From: an uncultured bacterium
GTDB lineage: Bacteria; Arandabacterota; Arandabacteria; JAGLYR01
Assembly (NCBI GenBank): GCA_964610505.1
Contig: CAZSXU010000007.1
Coordinates: forward strand, 3,594 to 67,593
DNA: 64,000 nucleotides
Direction: 5' to 3'
Part shown: piece by piece, positions 1,461 to 61,167 of the stretch
How the letters are laid out: every line of letters begins with the position of its first letter
Numbering within the stretch: position 1 is the stretch's first letter
Program-made: the position numbers and the translations under genes
The notes under the pieces: generated by a model
Database searches by the model: none
Seen by the model: the letters and a program-made list of their open reading frames with translations, nothing else
What the model was told of the DNA's origin: nothing

Positions 1461-3749
1461 ATGGGTATTCATTTGCGTCGATGTGTAAAATCTTTTTCGG
1501 TAGGGGGCCTCACCCTGTGTCTGCTCGGGTGGGGGTCGGAACAGGGGCCGACAAGCGCTCTCGGGCAGATCAGTGGGTCCTCTCATAATAGGGGAGAGGG
1601 GACAGTCGAGGCCCCCTACGTTATTCCGCAGACCGAAGAGAGAATCCGGATCGATGGCGTCCTGGACGACGCGCCCTGGCAACGCGCTCGGGTCCTGGAA
1701 CTCAACTACGAACAGGAACCGGGCGAGAACATCGCGCCTCCCGTTGAGACGGAGGTGCTGTTGATCTGCGATCGGCAGCATCTCTTCGCCGCATTTCGAT
1801 GCTACGATCCGGATCCCTCCGCCATCCGCGCGTACCTGCTCGATCGTGACCACCTCGGTGGACAGGACGACTGGGTAGAGATCGTTCTGGACACTTTCAA
1901 CGACGAGCGGCGGAGCTTCAATCTGTCCGTCAATCCTCTGGGCGTGCAGGACGATTACGTTGACACGGCCGGCGGAGGAGGAAGCTGGGACGGCATCTGG
2001 GACTCGGCAGGACGCGTCACCGATTGGGGCTATGCCGTGGAGATCGCCGTGCCCTTCAACCAGATCCGTTTCCAGCGAACTTCCGAGGAACAGGTGTGGG
2101 GGTTTGACGCCGTCCGGCACTATCCCCGGAGCCAGGAACATCGGATCGGCCTGTTCCCTCGGGACCGCAGCAACAACTGCTATCTGTGCCAGGCGGTGAA
2201 GATTCGCGGATTTGTCGGGGTTTCTCCCGGAAAGAACGTCGAAGTCAACCCATCCGTGACCACGGTGCGGACGGATGCGCGCGATGCTCTGCCCGATGGC
2301 CCGTTCCGGACGGGGGACCAGGACACGGATGTCGGGTTGACCGCGCGGTGGGGCTGGACGCCGAATCTCACCCTCACCTCAACACTGAATCCCGATTTCA
2401 GCCAGGTTGAGGCGGACGCGATGCAGCTCGACATCAATGAGCCCTTCGCACTGTATTACTCCGAACGACGCCCGTTCTTCACGGAGGGTTCGGATTTCTT
2501 TGGCACGCTCAAGACGGCGATCCATACCCGAACCGTGCGGGAGCCCTTGTGGGGGATGAAGCTCAGCGGGAAGGAAGGGTCTCACACGATCGGCGCGTAT
2601 GTCGTAGAAGACGATCGGACAAACCTGATTTTCCCGGGGAGTGAGAGTTCTGAAACCGCGTCGTTGGACATCGAATCGACGGCGTCCGTCTTTCGATACA
2701 AACGAGATATCGGCAGCCGCTACACGCTGGGTGCTCTCGCGACGAACCGTGAAGCCGGTGACTACGCGAACCACCTGGCCGGGGTCGACGGCAACTTCCT
2801 GCTGACGAACACGGATCAGATTCAGATCCAGATCCTGGGTTCGCGCACACAGTATCCCGGGGACGTCGCAATGGCTCACGGCCAGCGCACGGGCCGCTTT
2901 GACGGCGGATTCGTTGCCCTCGAGTACGATCACGAAAGCCGTGGGACGGGCTGGTGGCTGGACTACGATCAGGTCGACACCGGATTCCGGGCCGATCTGG
3001 GATTCATTCCGATGGTTGACTTCCGGAATGTCGAGGGCGGGATCCATCACAAGTGGTACGGCCCGGAGGGAGCCTGGTGGTATCGCTGTTGGCTGGGAAG
3101 CGAGGCCCACTACTACGAGGATCGCCGCGGCAGAGTTCTGGCGCGGGACGGTTCACTGTGGTTCTGCTACAGCGGGGCCCGTCAGTCCTGGCTGTCCCTC
3201 GAAGGTGGCCGGTCACGGGAAGCGTATGGAGACCTCGATTTCAATCTCACCTCCTACAGGGCGGATGGCGGATTCAGCCCCACGCGCCGGCTCCAGGTGA
3301 AACTCTACACACGCTTCGGCAACCGGATTGACTATGCAAACGGCCGCGTCGGCCGGCGAGTCTATGTCGAGCCCTGGATCCGCTACCACTTCGGACGACA
3401 CCTCAGTGTTGTCATGGATCTCACTTACGAGCGGTTGAATGTCGACGGGGGACGCCTCTACACGGCAAATGTCGGCGAGATCCGGGCCGTCTATCACATC
3501 AATGTGCGAACCTTCTTCCGGGCCATTCTTCAGTACCGCGACTACCAGTACAACCCGGGCCTGTATACGTTTGCCGTGGATCCAGAGGACCGGCGGTTCT
3601 TCACGGAGTTGCTGTTCTCGTACAAGATCAATCCGAGAACGGTCCTGTTCCTGGGGTATACCGACAATCACTACGGGACGCAGGATTACGGTCTGACGCA
3701 GAACGATCGGACGTTTTTCGCAAAACTGGGATACGCGTGGGTTCTGTAA
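1461..3749 (+). CDS. DUF5916 / carbohydrate-binding family 9-like outer-membrane protein
   Basis: 762 aa. N-terminal signal peptide, CBM9/DOMON-like segment (DGVLDDAPWQRA...DDWVEIVLDTFND) and a C-terminal beta-barrel-like end (LGYAWVL). Confidence 0.55.
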   Translation: MGIHLRRCVKSFSVGGLTLCLLGWGSEQGPTSALGQISGSSHNRGEGTVEAPYVIPQTEERIRIDGVLDDAPWQRARVLELNYEQEPGENIAPPVETEVLLICDRQHLFAAFRCYDPDPSAIRAYLLDRDHLGGQDDWVEIVLDTFNDERRSFNLSVNPLGVQDDYVDTAGGGGSWDGIWDSAGRVTDWGYAVEIAVPFNQIRFQRTSEEQVWGFDAVRHYPRSQEHRIGLFPRDRSNNCYLCQAVKIRGFVGVSPGKNVEVNPSVTTVRTDARDALPDGPFRTGDQDTDVGLTARWGWTPNLTLTSTLNPDFSQVEADAMQLDINEPFALYYSERRPFFTEGSDFFGTLKTAIHTRTVREPLWGMKLSGKEGSHTIGAYVVEDDRTNLIFPGSESSETASLDIESTASVFRYKRDIGSRYTLGALATNREAGDYANHLAGVDGNFLLTNTDQIQIQILGSRTQYPGDVAMAHGQRTGRFDGGFVALEYDHESRGTGWWLDYDQVDTGFRADLGFIPMVDFRNVEGGIHHKWYGPEGAWWYRCWLGSEAHYYEDRRGRVLARDGSLWFCYSGARQSWLSLEGGRSREAYGDLDFNLTSYRADGGFSPTRRLQVKLYTRFGNRIDYANGRVGRRVYVEPWIRYHFGRHLSVVMDLTYERLNVDGGRLYTANVGEIRAVYHINVRTFFRAILQYRDYQYNPGLYTFAVDPEDRRFFTELLFSYKINPRTVLFLGYTDNHYGTQDYGLTQNDRTFFAKLGYAWVL

Positions 3750-3876
3750 CTGCAGAGAATAGACAATAGAAAATGGACAATAGATCCCGGAGAAGAGCGT
3801 CGGGAGAACGCACAGACCTGATGTCGCCTTGTCGCCCGGTCCCCTTGCGGCCAGGTCGCCTGGTCGCCGTGTCGAG

Positions 3877-6012
3877 TTACTTGTCTATGCCCATCTGCCA
3901 GAGCGTGAAGGCGTAGTCCAGGGCGATCTCGCGAAGGTAGTCATAGCGCCCGGACGCACCCCCATGGCCGGCGCCCATGTTGACTACGAAGAGAAGCGGG
4001 TTCTCATCCGTCTTCAGCGCCCGCATCTTCGCCACGTATTTGGCCGGTTCCCAGTACATTACCTGGCTGTCATTGAAGGAGGTCTTCACCAACATCGCCG
4101 GATACGGCCCGGCTTTGAGATTCGTGTACGGGCAATACTGCCGGATATAGGTGTACTCGTCCTCAATGTTCGGATTCCCCCACTCCTCATACTCTCCCAC
4201 GGTAAGGGGGAGCGAGGCATCGAGCATGGTGTTCAGGACGTCCACAAAAGGGACGTCCGAAATGACAGCCCGAAAGAGATCCGGTCGCATGTTGACGATG
4301 GCTCCCATCAGGAGACCGCCCGCGCTGGCGCCCTCGACTACCAGACGGTCTTTCGCCGTGTATCCCTCATCGACCGTGTGCTCCGCCACGTCGATGAAGT
4401 CGGTGAACGTATTGATCTTGTGATCCATCCGCCCGTCGTCATGCCAGGTTTTGCCCATCTCACCGCCGCCCCGGATATGTGCGATGGCGTACGTGACGCC
4501 GCGATCAAGCAGACTCAGCCGCCTGGATCGGAAGCGAATAGAGTAGGGCCATCCATAGGCCCCGTACCCGGTGAGATACAGGGCACCTGTGCCGTCGTGC
4601 TTGGCCCCGCGCCTGTGGACCATCGAGATGGGGATGAGCGTGCCGTCCCGAGCCGTCGCGTATAGTCGTTTCGACACGTAGTCGTTCGGATCGTAGTCTC
4701 CGAGAACCTCGTCCTGCTTCAGGAGCTCACGGGCTCTCGAATCCATATCGTAGTCGAACACGGACTTCGGTGTGATCAGGGATTGATACTCGTAGCGGAG
4801 CGTCTTCGTGTCCCACTCGTAGTTGTCACCTGAATATGCGTTGTAGACGGGTTCGGGAAATGCCAGCCGATGCCAGTCTCCGGTGCGGAAGTCGGTGACC
4901 CGGAATTGAGGTAGACCGTTCTCACGTTCGTAGACGACGTAATGGTCTGTGAAGAGATCGAGGCCCTCCAGCATCACGTCGGCACGGTGGGGGATGATCT
5001 CCGTCCAGTTTTCTTCCTCCGGACGGTCGACCGGGAAGGACACGAGACGGAAATTCCGGCCCGTGTCGTTCACCAGCATGTAGAATCTCTCGTCGTGGTG
5101 GCCGAGGTTGCACTCCCGGTCCTGCTTGCGGGGCACAAGGACCCTCCAGTCACCTCTCGGCGTGGAGGCCGGCAGGGCGCGGACTTCCGTTGTTGTGAGG
5201 CTACCGACGTAGAGCAGGAGATAGTCTCTGCTTCGGGTGCGTGTGACGAAGATCCGGAAGAGCTCATCGGACTCCTCGTACAACAGATCGTCCTCCTCCA
5301 CTCCGAGTACGTGTCGCAGGAGCTGGTGCGGCCGTTTGGCAGGGTCTTCCGTGGTGTAGAAGAGGGTCTTGTTGTCGGAAGCCCAGACCACCGAGCGCAC
5401 CTTCTCGATCCGGTCGGGCAGAAGCCGTCCGGTACGGAGGTCCTTCACATGGAGCGTGTACTCGCGGAAACCGGTATTATCGGTGGTGTAGGCAAGGAGG
5501 TTTCCGTCGTCGCTGACTCGGTACCGGCCGATCGCCATGTATGTTTGCCCCTCGGCGAGCTCGTTCACATCCAGCGTGATCTGTTCGGGCGCGTCCAGGG
5601 ATCCTCGCTTGCGACAGTAGATCTCGTACTGCTTTCCCTCCTCGGTGCGGGTGTAATAGAAGTACTCCCCCATGCGGTAGGGAACCTCGAGATCCGTTTC
5701 CTTGATCCGTGAAAGCATCTCATCGTAGAGCGTCTCCTGGAAGTGCTTCGTGTGGGCCAGGATCTCCTCGGCGTACGCATTCTCGGCCTCGAGATAGGCC
5801 GCGACTTCCGGGTTCGTCTTTTCCCGCATCCAGAAATAGTCGTCCACACGCCGGTCGCCATGGATCGTGTCAACCTTGGGCACTTTCTTGGCAATCGGGG
5901 GAGCCGATTCGCAGAGGACCGGAGTGGCCGGAATCAGCTGAGCGCAGATCAGGATCACGAGGACAACCGGGAACAGAAGATGAGCGGACAGGTCTCTCCG
6001 GATACCGTGCAT
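3877..6012 (-). CDS. S9 family peptidase (prolyl oligopeptidase / oligopeptidase B-like), secreted
   Basis: GGSAGGLLMG catalytic-Ser motif. Signal peptide begins at MHGIRR, the Met at 6012, with a GGAGGA RBS. The ORF extends to 6108. Confidence 0.8.
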   Translation of the reverse strand: MHGIRRDLSAHLLFPVVLVILICAQLIPATPVLCESAPPIAKKVPKVDTIHGDRRVDDYFWMREKTNPEVAAYLEAENAYAEEILAHTKHFQETLYDEMLSRIKETDLEVPYRMGEYFYYTRTEEGKQYEIYCRKRGSLDAPEQITLDVNELAEGQTYMAIGRYRVSDDGNLLAYTTDNTGFREYTLHVKDLRTGRLLPDRIEKVRSVVWASDNKTLFYTTEDPAKRPHQLLRHVLGVEEDDLLYEESDELFRIFVTRTRSRDYLLLYVGSLTTTEVRALPASTPRGDWRVLVPRKQDRECNLGHHDERFYMLVNDTGRNFRLVSFPVDRPEEENWTEIIPHRADVMLEGLDLFTDHYVVYERENGLPQFRVTDFRTGDWHRLAFPEPVYNAYSGDNYEWDTKTLRYEYQSLITPKSVFDYDMDSRARELLKQDEVLGDYDPNDYVSKRLYATARDGTLIPISMVHRRGAKHDGTGALYLTGYGAYGWPYSIRFRSRRLSLLDRGVTYAIAHIRGGGEMGKTWHDDGRMDHKINTFTDFIDVAEHTVDEGYTAKDRLVVEGASAGGLLMGAIVNMRPDLFRAVISDVPFVDVLNTMLDASLPLTVGEYEEWGNPNIEDEYTYIRQYCPYTNLKAGPYPAMLVKTSFNDSQVMYWEPAKYVAKMRALKTDENPLLFVVNMGAGHGGASGRYDYLREIALDYAFTLWQMGIDK

Positions 6013-14008: not shown

Positions 14009-14055
14009 GGGAGAGCGAGAGAGCGCGACGAATCACAAGACCCCCGTCTGCACCC

Positions 14056-14136
14056 CACGGTGCCGGCCACGGTGCTGGCCACGGCGCCGCCCACGGCACC
14101 GGCCACGGCGCCGCCCACGGCGCCGCCCACGGCGCA
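14056..14136. repeat. Tandem 12-nt repeat CACGG(T/C)GC(C/T)G(G/C)C, about 6.75 copies, in the queA-tgt intergenic region
   Basis: The period-12 repeat can be read directly in the sequence. Confidence 0.85.
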
Positions 14137-29832: not shown

Positions 29833-29982
29833 CGCGCTCCTCCTTTGCCGGAAACACTCCGGAACGGCGGGGTCCGGCTCGAACGGTAGTGCCGGCGTCC
29901 AAAGGAAGTCAAGCATGGAAAGAGATGTCGGAGGATCCTCGACCAGCCCCGATGGGGAGTATTCGGGATAGACCCTCAATTC

Positions 29983-30073
29983 CGAGTACGAGTTCGAGTA
30001 CGAAGTACGAGTACGGAAAGAGCGGCAGCATCGTACTCGTACTCGGCTTTTTTGCGGGACTCGTACTCGGGGA
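29983..30073. repeat. (GAGTAC)n hairpin element A: direct GAGTACGAG units plus an inverted CGTACTCGTACTCG arm
   Basis: GAGTACGAGTTCGAGTACGAAGTACGAGTACG, loop, GTACTCGTACTCG, GCTTTTTTG. Related to elements at 31824-31905 and 32384-32455. Confidence 0.85.
30001..30056 (+). terminator. Intrinsic-terminator-like hairpin (stem about 11-14 bp, 16-nt loop, followed by GCTTTTTTG) built from the TACGAG repeat
   Basis: Stem GTACGAGTACG pairs with CGTACTCGTAC, followed by a T6 run. Confidence 0.5.
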
Positions 30074-30083
30074 ACGACCGGTC

Positions 30084-30112
30084 TTGACAATCCCGCCGCT
30101 AGGCGCTATGCT
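30084..30112 (+). promoter_or_regulatory. Near-consensus sigma70 promoter upstream of comM
   Basis: TTGACA, 17-nt spacer, TATGCT. Leaves a 5' leader of about 160 nt before the ATG at 30276. Confidence 0.45.
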
Positions 30113-30275
30113 GAGTTCCGAGAGAAATGAAGGAAGGGGATGCAATGTCCCCGGGGTAGGGCCTTCCGGATTCATGATCCAAGCGACCGGCGGAATCGAA
30201 CGTTTTCGGCCTCATCGGACTCTGAGGCGTGGCCGGTGTGTGTCTTGTCGCTCGGGGTGGAAGGGGTGGGGATCG

Positions 30276-31808
30276 ATGCTGGCGAAGGTGACGAGTTGTG
30301 CCGTGCTGGGGGTGGATGCCTTCCTGGTGCAGGTGGAGGTGGATCTGGGGTCAGGACTGCCGTCCTACGCCACCGTGGGGCTTCCGACGGTCGCCGTGAA
30401 GGAATCCCGGGATCGGGTCTTTGCGGCGGTCAAGAACAGCGGGTACCGGTTCCCGGCCAAGCGGGTTACGGTGAACCTGGCGCCCGCGGACATTAAGAAA
30501 GAGGGGGCCGCTTTCGATCTGCCCATTGCGCTGGGTATTCTGGCGGCCACGGAACAGATCAAGGTGGACGGAATGGGCCCCACCGTCATTCTCGGCGAAT
30601 TGTCCTTGGATGGTTCCGTTCGCCCCGTGCGCGGCGTACTGCCGATGGCGATGGAAGCGGGTCAGCGGAAGGTGCGGAATTTCGTCGTTCCCAGCCCCAA
30701 CGCGCACGAGGCGGGGGTGGTGGAGAACATCGATGTTTATGCCGTGTCGACGCTGGAGGAGGCCATCTCCGTCTTGCAGGATCCCGACGGATACACCCCG
30801 CACCGGACGAGCCTCGACGAAAGTGTGGAGGACGGACCGGACGAGGTGAATTTCGCCGAGGTCAAGGGACAGGAGCACGCGAAGCGGGCTCTCGAGGTGG
30901 CCGCAGCGGGCGGACATAATATTTTGCTTATAGGTCCTCCCGGGTCCGGTAAGACGATGCTGGCCCGGCGACTGCCGACCGTCCTCCCGCCTCTCACTCG
31001 TGAGGAAGCCCTCGAGACCACCAAGATCCATTCCGTTGCCGGACTCCTCGCCGAAGGCGTGGCGCTCCTGCGAAACCGCCCCTTTCGATCCCCCCATCAC
31101 ACGATCAGCGATGCCGGTCTCATCGGAGGGGGGGCGTATCCGAGGCCGGGCGAAGTCAGCCTGGCCCACCGCGGTGTTCTGTTCCTTGACGAGCTTCCCG
31201 AGTTTCGAAGAAACGTGCTCGAAGTCCTCAGGCAGCCTCTCGAGGACGGATGCGTCACCATTTCGAGAGCCGCAATATCCCTCGACTTCCCGGCCAGCTT
31301 CATGCTTGCCGCCGCGATGAATCCCTGCCCGTGCGGATACCGGACCGATCGGAAGAACCAGTGCAGCTGCTCGCCCCTCGAGGTCGAGCGCTATCTCTCG
31401 AAGATCTCAGGACCGCTCCTGGATCGGATCGACATTCATATCGAAGTTCCCTCGGTCAGCTACCGCGAGCTGGCAAGCCGGGAGCCCGGGGAGACTTCGG
31501 CTGGCGTGCGGGAGCGGGTCGTTCGTGCCCGGGGAGTGCAGGCGGAGAGATTCCGGCGCCGCAAGCGTATCTTCTCCAATTCGATGATGGGCCCGAGAGA
31601 CATCCGCAACTGCTGCCTCCCCGATTCCGAAGGGGCCGCTCTCATCAAAATGGCGATTACCCAGCTCGGGCTTTCGGCCCGGGCGTATGATCGAATCCTC
31701 AAAGTGGCGCGGACCATTGCGGACCTTGAGGGGGCGGACTCCGTAACGTCGAGCCATGTTTCGGAAGCGATTCAGTATCGGAGTTTGGATCGGAAGCTGT
31801 GGTTGTAA
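30276..31808 (+). CDS. comM: YifB/ComM family Mg-chelatase-like AAA+ ATPase
   Basis: MLAKVTSCAVLGVDAFLVQVEVD N-terminus, Walker A motif GPPGSGKTMLARR and Mg-chelatase C-terminal domain. ORF 29889-30275 is treated as a spurious extension. Confidence 0.9.
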   Translation: MLAKVTSCAVLGVDAFLVQVEVDLGSGLPSYATVGLPTVAVKESRDRVFAAVKNSGYRFPAKRVTVNLAPADIKKEGAAFDLPIALGILAATEQIKVDGMGPTVILGELSLDGSVRPVRGVLPMAMEAGQRKVRNFVVPSPNAHEAGVVENIDVYAVSTLEEAISVLQDPDGYTPHRTSLDESVEDGPDEVNFAEVKGQEHAKRALEVAAAGGHNILLIGPPGSGKTMLARRLPTVLPPLTREEALETTKIHSVAGLLAEGVALLRNRPFRSPHHTISDAGLIGGGAYPRPGEVSLAHRGVLFLDELPEFRRNVLEVLRQPLEDGCVTISRAAISLDFPASFMLAAAMNPCPCGYRTDRKNQCSCSPLEVERYLSKISGPLLDRIDIHIEVPSVSYRELASREPGETSAGVRERVVRARGVQAERFRRRKRIFSNSMMGPRDIRNCCLPDSEGAALIKMAITQLGLSARAYDRILKVARTIADLEGADSVTSSHVSEAIQYRSLDRKLWL

Positions 31809-31823
31809 TGCGAGCACAAAAGA

Positions 31824-31905
31824 CGAGTACGAGTACGGGTACGAGTGCGAGTACGGAAGCAGGCCGAATCGTACTCGTACTCAGCGTGAGCGGTACTCGT
31901 ACTCG
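31824..31905. repeat. (GAGTAC)n hairpin element B, immediately 3' of comM
   Basis: Left arm CGAGTACGAGTACG..CGAGTACG, loop, right arm CGTACTCGTACTC AGCGTGAGCG GTACTCGTACTCG. A further direct unit lies at 31963-31984. Confidence 0.85.
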
Positions 31906-32020
31906 TTCTCGAAGGTTTGGGGTTTCACTCCGCGGGGGGGTATTCACTGAGAACCGCGAGGACGAGTACGAAGTACGAGTACGAACAGAAGAAAAGGATC
32001 GCACTCGAAAGGATTGAGTC

Positions 32021-32368
32021 TTGTTCGACCACGAGAAGCTCGACGTCTATCGCGTCAGCATGGATTTCGTGAAGTGGGCCTATCGCTTGTGCAACAGGCT
32101 CAAAGGCGCTGATCGCAATGCCCGCGACCAGCTTTTGCGTGCCTCACAGTCGATCCCCCTGAACATTGCCGAAGGCAACGGAAAGCTTCCCTCACCGGAC
32201 CGGCAACGGTTTCTGCGAATCGCACTGGGTTCCGCGCTAGAATGTGCTGCGATCATTGACGTTCTTGCAGTTGGCGAGGCTATCGAAGACACGACAGCGG
32301 CGAGGGGCAGAGCGCTTCTTGTGCGGGTCGTTGCCATGCTGACGAAAATGACATCGCCCTCCAAGTGA
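32021..32368 (+). CDS. Four-helix-bundle protein (23S rRNA intervening-sequence protein family, TIGR02436-like)
   Basis: 115 aa with the pattern ...YR....F..W...L...L.....R.Q..RA..SI..NIAEG.G.....D...FL.IA.GS..E characteristic of the family. Confidence 0.8.
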   Translation: MFDHEKLDVYRVSMDFVKWAYRLCNRLKGADRNARDQLLRASQSIPLNIAEGNGKLPSPDRQRFLRIALGSALECAAIIDVLAVGEAIEDTTAARGRALLVRVVAMLTKMTSPSK

Positions 32369-32383
32369 GCGTCGGGAAGGAGC

Positions 32384-32455
32384 CGAGTTCGAGTACGAGT
32401 AGGAGTGAGAAGCGGGGAATTATACTCGTACTCAGCGATAGCGGTACTCGTACTC
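32384..32455. repeat. (GAGTAC)n hairpin element C, immediately 3' of the four-helix-bundle gene
   Basis: CGAGTTCGAGTACGAGTA, loop, CTCGTACTC AGCGATAGCG GTACTCGTACTCG GGGTTT. Confidence 0.85.
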
Positions 32456-32745
32456 GGGGTTTAGGATTGTGTTCTGTCCTGCCTTCGAGGAAGAAGGCGG
32501 TTTCACCGAGCGGCTGTACCGGGTACGGAGCCGGAGGCGCGGCGAATGAAGGATCCGGGCACAGCCCAGCGCGTTCACTCCACCTGTCTGGTTTGTCCCA
32601 CGCTCGCGGGGTTTCCCCGCGACGCGATCGAGAGCCACATTACCGTCCTCCGAATAACGGCGCGTACTGCCAAGGATTCGACCCATACAGACTGTCCGGT
32701 AAGGCCTGAAATCTCCATCTGAATCTGTGCACTTGACTTCGTGTA

Positions 32746-37377: not shown

Positions 37378-38301
37378 TCCTCCTAGGACCCTTCGTGAGC
37401 CTATGTCGGGCTGCTTCCCACATCAAGCGGGCGGCGGCCCGCGACCAGCAGATATCCGCCCCGGTCCCGCGGCCGACGTGCGTGTCCTGGCAGGTTGAGT
37501 CTGGGTCCGCGCCTCGGCGTCGTCGTCCTTCGGGTTTCTCTTCTCCCAAGACTGGAAGGCTTCGTACACCCCTCTGCGGTGACTGCCAGGTACAGCGGCA
37601 TCGCCTGTATCCTGTCCCTCGAGTGACCCCTGGCCCCGACGATCCCTGCGAAATAGAGGGTGCCCAGGACCAAGAAGAGGGTGTACAGCCTCCTCTGTCT
37701 GGAGTATGAGACCACCACGTATCCTTACGGAAACACATTCTCATTCTATATGAATACGCGTGGGTCGTAAAGCAGATTCGCCCCAATGAGCTACCCTAGG
37801 GAACCGGTCCAGTGGCTCTTACCCCGAAATGGACCTCTGACTCGCTCCGCTGCGAAAATCGTAGGGCGCAGTGTGACCTATGTCTTGGGGATGAACGTAA
37901 GCGAAGGGTCTCAGTCTGAGTCGTGGCGTGCCGTCTTGGGAGGCGGCCGAAGATCCCGATGCGTGGCGGAGCGAAACATAAACTCGATCTCGCCGTTTGG
38001 ACAGCGCACAGCCGGGGAATCTCGGCCGGCACGCGTCATCCCTCGAGACACGGTGATCCCGGCCTTCCGGCATCGCACTCTGCGCTCGGGGCGAACCGTA
38101 TCGGAACCTCCGGCCGCTGATGCCCGGTCGCCGTCGTTCCCTATGACCCACGCAACCTATTTATCCTTCCTCGGTCTACATAAATGAAGCCATAGCCGGA
38201 AGACCCGGGGCGATTCGGTTCTGGTCTGAGTGATGGGTCGAACAGCCTCCCCTCCGAAAGTACAGAACCCCTGTGAGCCAATCAGCCGAAAAGGAGACAT
38301 C

Positions 38302-39756
38302 ATGAAACGCTTGACTCTCACGTGGGCTCTAACGGTCTGTCTCGCCGCTTGCCATGTAGCATTCGCGGCGGGTGCCGAGGACGGGAAACGGCCGGCTTCC
38401 AAGAAGTTCGGGGAGTCTGTCTATCTGCTGGAAACATGGATCGAGTCGGTGCTCGATTTCGATCGCCTGCCGGGAATGTCCATCGCCGTCATCCACGATC
38501 AGGAGATTGTCTACACGAGAGGGTTCGGTTACGCGGATGTTGAGAGGGGCGTGAATGCGACGCCGAATACGCGCTACAGCATCTGCTCGATCTCCAAGCT
38601 GTTTACCAGTATTGCCATCATGCGGCTTCGCGATGAGGGGAAGCTGAGTCTGGATGATCCAGTGTCCAAACATCTACCCTGGTTTGCGCTGGAAACCGAG
38701 GATCCCAAGGCGCAGCCGCCGACGCTGGAGGATTTACTGCGGCACTCAAGCGGGCTGCCCTGCGAACCGGATTTGGCGACCTGGCCCGAATCCGATCTGC
38801 GCCGTCCGTCGCGCGAAGAACTCATCGAAGGAGTTTCGAAGCTGAAGGCGAGTTATCCCACCAACACGCAGTTCAACTACTCAAACCTGGGATTCTCTCT
38901 CCTCGGCGAGGTGGTGTCGGTGGTTTCAGGCATGGCGTATGAGGAATACGTGCACGAGAGCATCCTCGAGCCTCTTGGAATGGAGGCGACGACTCCGTAT
39001 CCACCCCGGAGTGTGCCGGGGAGGGAAGTGGCCGTCGGCTATGGGCGCTGGCCGCGAACGGGATCGCGCGCGGTAATATCACTTCCCGATGCACGGGCGA
39101 TGACTCCCGCAGGAGGTTTCGCCTCGACGGTGACGGACCTGGCGAAGTTTGCGATGTGGCAGTTCCGCGTCCTCGACGGGAAAGACGACGACGTCCTGGG
39201 CCAGGAAACGCTGGAGGAGATGCAGACCGTCCAGTGGCAGGATCCCGAGTGGGGCTACGGATTCACAGTCTGGTCCATGGGGGGCATGCACTTCGTCGGA
39301 CATCAGGGCGGCTGCCCTGGGTACAAGTCGCAGATCATCCTCTGCCCGGAAGAGAAGATCGCTGTGGTGGCGATGATCAACGCGACGGACGCGCCGCAGT
39401 TCACGCTAGTGTTGGAGACCTACAATATCATGGCGCCGGCTCTTAGGGCCTCGAGTAGCAGCGAGGAGGCGGACGAGTCGCAGGACTGGGCGAAATACAC
39501 CGGGTACTACACGGCCGACATGTCCTGGTCCGAGGCCGAGGTGGTGGTGTGGGACGGCGCCCTGTCGGTGATGTGGGTGCCGACGGGCAATCCTCTGGGC
39601 TCTCTGGTGAGATTGAAGCGCATCGAGGGAGGCATCTTCCGCCAGGTCGGAGGCGATGGGGCGCTTGGCAAGCACTACGTGTTCGGGACCGATGCCGAGA
39701 GCAACACCGTCTGCATGAAGTTCAATAACAACCTGCTCAGGAAGACGGTTCCCTGA
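38302..39756 (+). CDS. Secreted serine hydrolase, class C beta-lactamase / PBP-related family, with a C-terminal extra domain
   Basis: Signal peptide and S-x-x-K motif (CSISKLF). AAGGAG RBS before the ATG at 38302. Confidence 0.85.
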   Translation: MKRLTLTWALTVCLAACHVAFAAGAEDGKRPASKKFGESVYLLETWIESVLDFDRLPGMSIAVIHDQEIVYTRGFGYADVERGVNATPNTRYSICSISKLFTSIAIMRLRDEGKLSLDDPVSKHLPWFALETEDPKAQPPTLEDLLRHSSGLPCEPDLATWPESDLRRPSREELIEGVSKLKASYPTNTQFNYSNLGFSLLGEVVSVVSGMAYEEYVHESILEPLGMEATTPYPPRSVPGREVAVGYGRWPRTGSRAVISLPDARAMTPAGGFASTVTDLAKFAMWQFRVLDGKDDDVLGQETLEEMQTVQWQDPEWGYGFTVWSMGGMHFVGHQGGCPGYKSQIILCPEEKIAVVAMINATDAPQFTLVLETYNIMAPALRASSSSEEADESQDWAKYTGYYTADMSWSEAEVVVWDGALSVMWVPTGNPLGSLVRLKRIEGGIFRQVGGDGALGKHYVFGTDAESNTVCMKFNNNLLRKTVP

Positions 39757-50683: not shown

Positions 50684-51124
50684 GAAGAATAGCGCATTGG
50701 ACAAGAATAGACAATAGACAATGAATGGAAATAGAGAGGTCGGCGGGTTGATATAGAGAAGCGGAGAAGCGGACCGCATTGGAGGAGAATAGACAATAGA
50801 CCGAAATGGTGAAGTCGTCAGGTTCTCCACGACGCCTTTTTCCAGGATCTATTGTCTATTTTCTATTGTCTGCTTCACCATTTCTCTGGGGAACCTAAAC
50901 AGAAAATGGGAGCCAAGTGGCTCCCGAGGTCCGAGGGAAGCGAGGAGAGATTTGAGGATTGGAGGAGAATAGACAATAGACCGAAATGGTGAAGTCGTCA
51001 GGTTCTCCACGACGCCTTTTTCCAGGATCTATTGTCTATTTTCTATTGTCTGCTTCACCATTTCTCTGGGGAACCTAAACAAGAACAGGGAGCCTCATTG
51101 GCTCCCTGTTCTTGTTTAGGTTCC
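50684..51124. repeat. Complex intergenic repeat: AATAGAC iterons, a 180-bp unit in two tandem copies (50781-50960 and 50961-51140, 122 nt identical), and a truncated plus an intact long palindrome
   Basis: GGAGGAGAATAGACAATAGACCGAAATGGTGAAG...TCTATTGTCTATTTTCTATTGTCTGCTTCACCATTTC...GGAACCTAAACA is repeated. A related copy lies at 60952-61167. Confidence 0.85.
51070..51124. terminator. Perfect 25-bp-arm palindrome (GGAACCTAAACAAGAACAGGGAGCC tcatt GGCTCCCTGTTCTTGTTTAGGTTCC): GC stem with flanking A- and T-tracts, like a bidirectional terminator
   Basis: Read directly. The sister palindrome at 61168-61221 has different inner-arm bases that are perfectly compensated. Confidence 0.5.
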
Positions 51125-60951: not shown

Positions 60952-61167
60952 GCATTGGACGAAAATAGACAATAGACAATAGACCGAAATGGTGAAGTCG
61001 TCAGGTTCTCCACGATGCCTTTTTCCAGGATCGGGGGGGACGTGGAAAGGACCCATTGCGATAGAGAAGCAGAGAAGCGGACCGAAACGGAAGGGGCTGA
61101 GTGGTTGTCCATGATGCGGTTGTCCGCATCTGTTTCTCTGTTTCTCGGCTTCTCCGTTTCTCTGCGG
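60952..61167. repeat. Complex intergenic repeat, right-hand copy (AATAGAC iterons x3, GAAATGGTGAAGTCGTCAGGTTCTCCACGATGCCTTTTTCC, GAGAAGC shuffled inverted motifs)
   Basis: Related to 50684-51124 and in the same orientation. Confidence 0.85.

Follow-up and report, generated by a model that had tools for sequence, protein, structure and literature searches.

Probable copies and fragments of a repeat-armed four-helix-bundle gene cassette beside comM in an uncultured bacterium of the Arandabacterota

The DNA analyzed here, referred to as the window, is a 64,000-nt stretch of contig CAZSXU010000007.1 from an uncultured bacterium of the Arandabacterota. Within 2.5 kb it contains comM, a short open reading frame (ORF) for a four-helix-bundle (4HB) protein, and three repeat elements built of hexamers, which we call A, B, and C. 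Relatives of the 4HB gene in many phyla lie between two complementary arrays of such short repeats, and it is this arrangement, a gene with a left arm and a right arm, that we describe. A sequence-only reading of the window had assigned the short ORF to the family of proteins encoded by intervening sequences (IVSs) of 23S rRNA and the longer one to comM. Both assignments are confirmed by profile matches, the former to PF05635 and TIGR02436 and the latter, as YifB/ComM, to TIGR00368. The features of the region, all on the + strand, are the following.

29984-30068, + strand: element A, a junction hairpin of a right arm and a left arm; right arm of five GAGTAC-type hexamers at 29984-30015, then a loop; on its left-arm side GTACTCGTACTC at 30033-30044, a T-rich insert GGCTTTTTTGCGG at 30045-30057, and GACTCGTACTC at 30058-30068
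30084-30112, + strand: sigma-70-like promoter TTGACA-17-TATGCT ahead of comM, context outside the element, a consensus match only (10 of 12)
30276-31808, + strand: comM/yifB, Mg-chelatase-like AAA ATPase, a host gene (TIGR00368, E 4e-193)
31825-31911, + strand: element B, a junction hairpin; right arm of 5 hexamers at 31825-31855, a loop, left arm at 31871-31882, small stem-loop insert AGCGTGAGCG at 31883-31892, and second left-arm block at 31893-31911
31871-31983, + strand: ORF-less canonical unit; left arm of B with its stem-loop, a 46-nt loop, and a right arm at 31958-31983
31958-32013, + strand: degenerate extra unit; right arm at 31958-31983, remnant left arm CGCACTCG at 32000-32007, then AAAGGA
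32000-32013, + strand: the cassette's own left-arm remnant CGCACTCG at 32000-32007 with the Shine-Dalgarno sequence AAAGGA at 32008-32013
32021-32368, + strand: 4HB gene, 115 amino acids, TTG start (PF05635, E 2.7e-21; TIGR02436, E 2.8e-20)
32385-32455, + strand: element C; the cassette's right arm at 32385-32409 (GAGTTC GAGTAC GAGTAG GAGTGA), a loop, left arm at 32422-32433, stem-loop insert AGCGATAGCG at 32434-32443, and left arm at 32444-32455

Matches to GAGTACGAGTAC with at most one mismatch number 18 in the window, of which 17 fall within 29984-32455 and one is a stray at 4153. The expectation for the whole window is 0.17 and the maximum in 100 shuffles was 3, so the GAGTAC-type repeats are present as the sequence-only reading had described them. 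Elements A, B, and C follow a common plan, in which a 5' run of GAGTAC-type hexamers faces two GTACTCGTACTC blocks with a 10-13-nt insert between them. A core, AGCGNNAGCG, had been reported as conserved in all three, which is not the case: only B and C carry it, and A has its T-rich insert at that place. Folded as RNA, the elements form long bipartite hairpins of -48.6 (A), -52.4 (B), and -34.3 (C) kcal/mol, with z scores of -5.7, -6.8, and -4.1, and of the two strands in the window it is the + strand that has the better fold. No Rfam 15 family matches the window at its gathering score, rRNA included, and none matches 29900-32600 at E up to 1. Terminator function was considered for the hairpins and rejected, as a scan for rho-independent terminators found none at A, B, or C; the sole T6 after a stem follows the inner stem of A and is internal to the larger hairpin.

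With R for a right arm and L for a left arm, the order of modules is R0-L1 (A), comM, R1-L2 (B), R2-L3remnant, the 4HB ORF, and R3-L4 (C). The ORF had been described as sandwiched precisely between B and C, which holds on the 3' side, where C follows, but not on the 5' side, where the boundary is the degenerate unit at 31958-32013 and not B directly. The ORF's own left arm is reduced to CGCACTCG, which together with AAAGGA is comparable to the GTACTC-GAAAGG-N8-ATG layout of relatives, and a stem around the ORF is possible only by way of neighboring arms. In the minimum free energy (MFE) fold of 31812-32470, outer hexamers of B pair with distal hexamers of C and close the whole cassette. Within the ORF-less unit at 31871-31983, segments 31897-31911 and 31957-71 are complementary at 93%, and the MFE fold pairs both arms.

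The 4HB protein of the window has thousands of homologs, the best 120 of which are 63-84% identical to it and come from several phyla. We studied the contexts of four close homologs and of 80 metagenomic loci, and found one layout throughout: an unrelated flank, a hexamer left arm (often with a stem-loop), GAAAGG, about 8 nt, ATG and the ORF, a complementary right arm, and another unrelated flank. The Shine-Dalgarno box stands directly after the left arm in all copies, and the 4HB gene, whose product is basic, is the sole conserved gene of the cassette. What is conserved is thus a left arm, the ORF, and a right arm that complements the left one across the ORF, and not hairpin-ORF-hairpin. In general form the left arm is (TCGNNN)n and the right arm (NNNCGA)n, the TCG/CGA core being common to all hexamer units. 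The repeat unit varies by lineage yet agrees between both arms of a locus, as in the pairs GTACTC/GAGTAC, GTGCTC/GAGCAC, GTTGTC/GACAAC, GTTCTC/GAGAAC, ATCGGN/NCCGAT, and ATCGCT/AGCGAT. We scored this agreement as the complementarity of the 120 nt upstream of the ORF to the 200 nt downstream of it. A score of at least 10, our cut-off, was reached by 67 of 71 loci (median 18), compared with 0 of 72 shuffled controls and with 1 of 38 and 2 of 41 when a 900-nt shift was applied in the same loci. The best arm stem has a median of 26 nt, and the span from left arm to right arm a median of 469 nt.

In most copies the right arm is translated, as an acidic (D/E)X tail. Of 78 loci, 63 read it in the (D/E)X frame, and 63 have their stop codon beyond it; the window copy is among the 15 of 78 in which the stop codon precedes the right arm, and its product is a tail-less variant. 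The gene calls of many homologs are too long, since the ORF continues into the repeats, with C-termini such as ...QVRExxEYEYAYEY and N-termini such as YSYAYSYS. The contexts of the cassettes are unrelated housekeeping or cas operons, the upstream neighbor being co-oriented with the cassette in 28 of 40 loci, and 23S rRNA flanks, sought as long 23S motifs, are absent from all loci examined. In the window the flanking genes are comM and a gene for a PEMT-family methyltransferase. Many right arms (for instance, those of L138, L143, L156, L164, L163, and L202) have their own 9-nt insert, CGCGATGCT, translated as Arg-Asp-Ala, and L138 contains the block EYEYEYRDA four times. This insert is itself a small hairpin and is not the complement of the left-arm insert of the same locus (for example, AGTGCAACG), so that paired arms would form a four-way junction.

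The inserts of the left arm have a strand-specific consensus, GTACTCGTACTC-A(stem-loop)G-GTACTCGTACTC. The A-stem-loop-G form is found in 46 of 57 distinct inserts, where 0.5 would be expected. In the class of 9-nt inserts 94.8% of cells are paired, with compensatory changes in both pairs (GC to AU and CG to UA), which 0 of 500 shuffles equaled. Insert lengths range from 9 to 18 nt, and 19 of the 57 are 10, 11, 13, or 14 nt long and thus not multiples of three. The hexamer motif is also depleted inside long open frames (24%, versus 69% at random positions). Lengths that often break the reading frame, together with this depletion, indicate that the motif is a nucleic acid structure and not coding sequence.

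The same repeats occur in hairpins that lack the gene. A scan for GTACTCGTACTC-N8-16-ACTCGTACTC in one genome per species gave more than 120 stretches, several per genome, mostly in Planctomycetota, with other matches in Verrucomicrobiota, Bacteroidota, Chloroflexota, Gemmatimonadota, Acidobacteriota, Rhodothermota, and Proteobacteria. Among the ORF-less hairpins, 71 have the order left arm-loop-right arm and 6 begin with the right arm, and the predominant order has the polarity of a cassette minus its ORF. The co-occurrence of repeats and 4HB genes that the sequence-only reading had suggested as a check is accordingly one-sided: arms bracket nearly all of the 4HB relatives scored, but the gene is present at only 7 of 120 hairpin loci. 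MITEs (miniature inverted-repeat transposable elements) relate to their parent elements in the same manner. Internal deletion can be followed in tandem arrays (L123, L125, and L098) in which the ORFs retain only their first 5-25 and last ~25 codons, beside the arms. The stretch L098:4606-6050 is an array of internally deleted cassettes; it has five tandem mini-ORFs with hexamer arms on each, which match only the first ~25 and last ~30 positions of the 4HB profile.

Inverted tandem-repeat arms were also found around 6 of 6 distant relatives examined (Cyanobacteria, Gemmatimonadota, and Xanthomonadales), and the architecture is present around the 4HB family in every phylum sampled. Relatives at 30-42% identity are found on annotated plasmids of Anabaena sp. 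90, Picosynechococcus, Nostoc punctiforme, and Gemmatirosa, all with inverted heptamer arrays in place of hexamers, with the pairs GGTGACA/TGTCACC, CAGGAGT/ACTCCTG, and GGAGGGC/GCCCTCC. The gene order is cas6-4HB-cas4 on pANA02 of Anabaena sp. 90 (L208:823-1598) and cas10-4HB-cmr3 in Picosynechococcus (L209:1148-1575). In Xanthomonas campestris and Lysobacter, genes of the XCC0516 type lie between accB and accC, with heptamers of the GGGAATC type upstream and their complement downstream; arms at these genes were predicted first and then found. The closest solved structure to the window protein is that of XCC0516 (PDB 2GSC, E 2e-12), which was deposited with five chains.

Some details of these distant cassettes may be recorded here. 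The left arm in Anabaena is about 300 nt of (GGTGACA/GGGAACA)n, versus a right arm of 28 nt. The cassettes of Xanthomonas campestris (L213:1424-1872) and Lysobacter (L217:1484-1938) are inside the essential accB-accC operon, where the left arm begins 6 nt past the accB stop codon and the right arm ends at the ATG of accC, which has no obvious Shine-Dalgarno sequence. Pairing of these arms would place the accB stop beside the accC start.

Among GTACTC-type cassettes homology ends just outside the arms, and one pair of strains shows a corresponding difference between alleles. In flanking cas6, cas4, and cas1d sequence the Anabaena plasmid pANA02 shares 98.7% identity with a Dolichospermum plasmid, and the segment of about 850 nt found only in Anabaena begins with the first repeat of the left arm and ends with the last repeat of the right arm, which is exactly the arms plus the ORF. 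Across Planctomycetota, Desulfobacterota, Verrucomicrobiota, and Sumerlaeota the 4HB protein keeps 65-84% identity, more than the adjacent comM product, which does not exceed 67% once its two closest relatives are set aside. From these sequence comparisons we infer that the cassette has spread horizontally. The proposal of the sequence-only reading, a selfish repeat-bounded cassette of the 23S IVS type outside rRNA, is upheld by the arms at 67 of 71 close and all six distant relatives, by boundaries that coincide with the arms, by the unrelated contexts, and by this strain pair, which together suggest that the cassette is mobile. The Dolichospermum allele (UHCC 0315A plasmid, L212:818-1100) has a filler of ~245 nt with two GTTGGGTT...AACCCAAC hairpins, which may represent a different small repeat element located at this cas6-cas4 junction.

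A viral origin was considered and rejected, as no relative of the 4HB protein was found in IMG/VR. The hexamer pattern in viral contigs is mostly pure (GTACTC)n, and among those inspected only L220 has a clear left arm-loop-right arm hairpin. In another IMG/VR contig (L219:1750-2250) the match is low-complexity coding sequence rich in EY/NEH (...EYEYNEHEYEYNEHEY...). Pure (GTACTC)n matches can thus be coding and must be kept apart from the motif that bears the stem-loop. PADLOC and PHROGs gave no match that would place the gene in a defense system or a phage family.

The neighborhood of comM was compared in the same way. Its named relatives are in Latescibacteria, Zixibacteria, KSB1, and Gemmatimonadota at ~62-66% identity, and the two closest, on L207 (81%) and on JGI contig 669jdb_6 (80%), are not syntenic with the window. 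On L207 comM has neither the cassette nor the hexamers, but because synteny beyond comM is not conserved this does not amount to a clean empty site. Eight heptamers NNAGCAC stand directly upstream of this comM (L207:3396-3455), with no complementary partner found downstream. The JGI contig (sample 3300042731) has comM at 1145-2677 and, at 2836-3504, a gene for 222 amino acids with a weak PF05635 match, followed by a beta-lactamase-family gene; in the window a gene of this family lies ~6 kb downstream, at 38230-39756. The adjacency of comM and a 4HB gene may be older than the lineage of the window. In the window itself, the neighbors of comM on either side are the left arm of A and the right arm of B. 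The segment 30032-30055 (left arm of A and T-rich insert) is complementary to 31814-31837 (left flank and right arm of B) at 22 of 24 positions (92%), so that comM sits between a matched pair of arms, which may reflect history or coincidence. The presence of comM prompted us to consider that the hexamers are DNA-uptake sequences; we rejected this because, within the window, they are limited to this 2.5 kb and because other loci do not have comM as a neighbor.

In its composition the cassette resembles both the ORF-bearing 23S IVSs and MITE or REPIN systems, and it fails each on a defining feature: the rRNA site, the transposase or RAYT, and the target-site duplication. The Coxiella 23S IVS is 428-444 nt long, with a 28-bp terminal stem that is cut by RNase III, and has a Shine-Dalgarno sequence and 3-4 tandem heptamers (GACAGAT) before the ATG of S23p (PMC4990558). 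ORF-bearing 23S IVSs, as in Leptospira and Coxiella burnetii (S23p), share with the cassette in its full form the PF05635 protein, an ORF within terminal inverted repeats whose stem is ~28 bp, and short tandem repeats with a Shine-Dalgarno sequence just 5' of the ORF. Their length is also close to the cassette median of 469 nt, and horizontal transfer has been deduced for both. Unlike these IVSs, the cassettes stand between protein-coding genes (comM and the PEMT-family gene here; accB/accC, cas6/cas4, and cas10/cmr3 elsewhere) and not in helix 9, 25, or 45 of 23S rRNA. The window cassette also differs in its hexamer unit; in most relatives the ORF takes in the right arm, and ORF-less and tandem derivatives exist.

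Correia or nemis elements of Neisseria are MITEs that are transcribed into hairpins and cleaved by RNase III, and in REPIN-RAYT systems one gene is flanked by repeats that are also dispersed through the genome. The hairpins described here are like MITEs in being short, inverted-repeat, intergenic, multi-copy, and non-autonomous, with their more than 120 stretches and several per genome. They are unlike them in that the Anabaena/Dolichospermum boundaries have no target-site duplication and that the 4HB gene is the only gene of full copies, with no transposase in the ~12 kb to each side of the window cassette. The likeness to REPIN-RAYT is one of layout only, the flanked gene being PF05635 and not an IS200/IS605-like TnpA. 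From both systems the cassette differs in having arms that are tandem arrays of variable copy number. Integron cassettes have attC sites, an integrase, and GTTRRRY core sites. They have in common with 4HB cassettes a promoterless single ORF, co-oriented arrays, and bounding imperfect palindromes with extra-helical features; the 4HB cassette, however, has neither integrase nor GTTRRRY, and its two arms, one at either end of the ORF, are mutually complementary.

Tandem heptamers have been known in their own right, in cyanobacteria as repeats of the STRR (short tandemly repeated repetitive) type. In Xanthomonas, Rehm et al. (2015) described quadruplex-forming GGGAATC repeats, with 70-75 convergent pairs per genome, and proposed a G-quadruplex (G4) function (PMC4692102); a search of its text turned up no 4HB gene. 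Like the cassette arms, these repeats are tandem 7-mers that are intergenic and often in convergent pairs, and repeats of exactly the GGGAATC type flank the Xanthomonas 4HB gene, as heptamer arrays flank those of Anabaena and Nostoc. The proposed G4 function, however, cannot apply to GTACTC or GTTGTC arms. For the protein, the nearest comparison is to Avd of diversity-generating retroelements. Avd is a pentamer of four-helix bundles, and 2GSC was deposited with five chains. Avd is reported to resemble PF05635 in both sequence and structure (PMC10053308). Unlike such retroelements, the window cassette has housekeeping neighbors with neither a reverse transcriptase nor a template/variable repeat pair near it, and its arms are inverted and of low complexity.

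We consider it probable that a repeat-armed 4HB cassette is present in this region as a few clustered copies and fragments; in the steps proposed here the cassette would be gained and lost, processed by RNase III, and bound by its own protein. As read from the aligned loci, the full cassette is ~470 bp long and consists of the left arm, GAAAGG, a PF05635 ORF of ~115 amino acids, and the right arm, with a helix of ~26 bp that can enclose the ORF. The window contains one ORF-bearing copy, at 32000-32409, whose left arm is down to one hexamer and whose tail is lost, and A, B, and C are half-units abutting one another. The cassette, including its arms, would be gained and lost as one unit and would move between phyla, and internal deletion would give rise to the ORF-less hairpins in a decay like that of MITEs. 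Where the cassette is co-transcribed with its neighbors, the arms would form a perfect double-stranded RNA of ~26 bp, by analogy with the rRNA IVS. RNase III would then cut the arm duplex as it does the IVS stem, and the insert would be looped out of, or processed from, the host transcript. The basic 4HB protein, whose closest solved relative was deposited with five chains and for which a resemblance to Avd is reported, probably binds the repeat structures.

Several observations weigh against this account. No transposase, reverse transcriptase, or integrase is encoded within ~12 kb on either side of the window cassette. At the Anabaena/Dolichospermum boundaries target-site duplications are absent, and the Dolichospermum allele has ~245 nt of unrelated sequence in place of the cassette, which makes the difference a replacement that allelic exchange by homologous recombination would also explain. 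The accB-4HB-accC position is kept in both Xanthomonas and Lysobacter, which points to long vertical residence. The window copies are themselves atypical, since hairpins with the right arm first, such as A, B, and C, are rare elsewhere (6 versus 71 with the left arm first), and the arrangement RL-ORF-RL is found in 1 of 42 loci, versus 24 of 42 for L-ORF-R. The promoter-like site at 30084-30112, between A and comM, is the sole candidate found for comM, and A, being upstream of it, may not be co-transcribed with this gene. As for processing, a cut by RNase III in the right arm would leave the ORF without its stop codon in the 63 of 78 loci where this lies beyond that arm, and translation and processing must therefore compete. 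Wobble-type mismatches in the arms have no strand bias (47 versus 58 and 22 versus 32), so the better fold of the + strand in the window is not a general trend and nothing in them favors structure at the RNA level over the DNA level, and the arms may have a DNA-level role as a cruciform or a single-stranded DNA hairpin. RNA duplexfold on whole flanks gave energies dominated by non-specific pairing.

The arms could instead be an intrinsic, non-mobile means of regulating an ordinary host gene, with the 5' untranslated region pairing with the 3' end of its own mRNA and affecting stability or translation. Solo hairpins would then be stabilizers or insulators similar to repetitive extragenic palindromes, and the contexts would result from old vertical history and ordinary transfer. 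The conserved accB-4HB-accC position, the Shine-Dalgarno sequence directly after the left arm in all copies, the co-orientation of upstream neighbors in 28 of 40 loci, and the fact that neither transposase nor target-site duplication was seen all speak for such regulation. We nonetheless think it unlikely, given that the 4HB protein is 65-84% identical across phyla and the adjacent comM product at most 67%, that tandem arrays and internally deleted copies exist, and that the gene is found at no more than 7 of 120 hairpin loci. The difference in presence bounded by arms, with flanking cas genes 98.7% identical, is likewise at odds with it.

A converse arrangement, in which the inverted pairs are pre-existing hairpins of the host and the 4HB gene (from Shine-Dalgarno sequence to ORF end) moves into their loops and so acquires the arms of the host lineage, seems to us rather improbable. 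It would account for a repeat unit that is lineage-specific in an architecture that is constant, and ORF-less arm pairs are indeed abundant, including the 70-75 convergent GGGAATC pairs per Xanthomonas genome (PMC4692102). But the Dolichospermum allele is without arms as well as without the ORF, 63 of 78 loci have their right arm in the (D/E)X frame where random insertion would spread over three frames, and the deletion intermediates keep the ORF termini beside the arms. We give hardly any credence to the idea that the hexamers are mere coding or low-complexity sequence, (Glu-Tyr)n tails and similar with no structural role, even though translation of the right arm gives EYEY, DNDN, or DSDS tails in 63 of 78 loci and the EY-rich ORF of viral contig L219 matches the pattern. 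Left arms stand upstream of the start codon, where they form the reverse complement of right arms; 19 of 57 inserts have lengths that are no multiple of three, with covariation in their stems; and heptamer arms cannot be in frame. For the window the coding interpretation is contradicted by the stop codon before the arm.

Two other repeats in the window were noted. Inverted heptamers (AATAGAC)n and (GTCTATT)n occur at 3754-3784, 50700-50735, 50778-51106 (a 180-nt unit x1.8), 60964-60984, and 61129-61164. In this family modules CGAAATGGTGAAG and CTTCACCATTTC are in the crossed order a-b-a'-b', followed by a terminator-like hairpin GGGGAACCTAAACAG...CTGTTTAGGTTCCCC, with no ORF between the arms; by analogy with the hexamer hairpins, these repeats could be ORF-less arms of another family of 4HB cassettes elsewhere in the genome. 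A 12-nt tandem repeat at 14054-14135, CCCACGGCGCCG x6.8 with 87% matches, is unrelated to the cassette.

The repeat-armed cassette bears on the origin and function of ORF-bearing 23S rRNA IVSs, a question since 1993, and on what the "four helix bundle protein" genes, which are very abundant, do within accBC, cas, and other operons. In the searchable literature, 23S_rRNA_IVP genes have been noted in cas loci and heptamer repeat pairs have been noted, but we found there no link of 4HB genes to repeat pairs and no repeat-armed cassettes, although curated family notes may say more. The published association of the 23S_rRNA_IVP domain with CRISPR may be operon hitch-hiking. For annotation, C-terminal EYEY, DNDN, and DSDS tails and N-terminal YSYS extensions should be treated as read-through of repeat arms. 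A broader possibility, which we put forward tentatively and think doubtful as it stands, is that PF05635 genes with inverted arms of 6-7-nt units make up an unrecognised class of mini-elements across phyla, with a pentameric nucleic-acid-binding protein as trans-acting partner and a layout like that of RAYT-REPIN without a known transposase. If this were true, ORF-bearing 23S rRNA IVSs would be copies that landed in rRNA, and the convergent GGGAATC pairs of Xanthomonas, the heptamer arrays of cyanobacteria, and the GTACTC hairpins of planctomycetes would be ORF-less progeny. The cassette unites scattered oddities, namely rRNA IVSs, the CRISPR association, G4-forming GGGAATC repeats, and planctomycete hexamer hairpins, in one system, which the culturable hosts Xanthomonas and Anabaena make testable.

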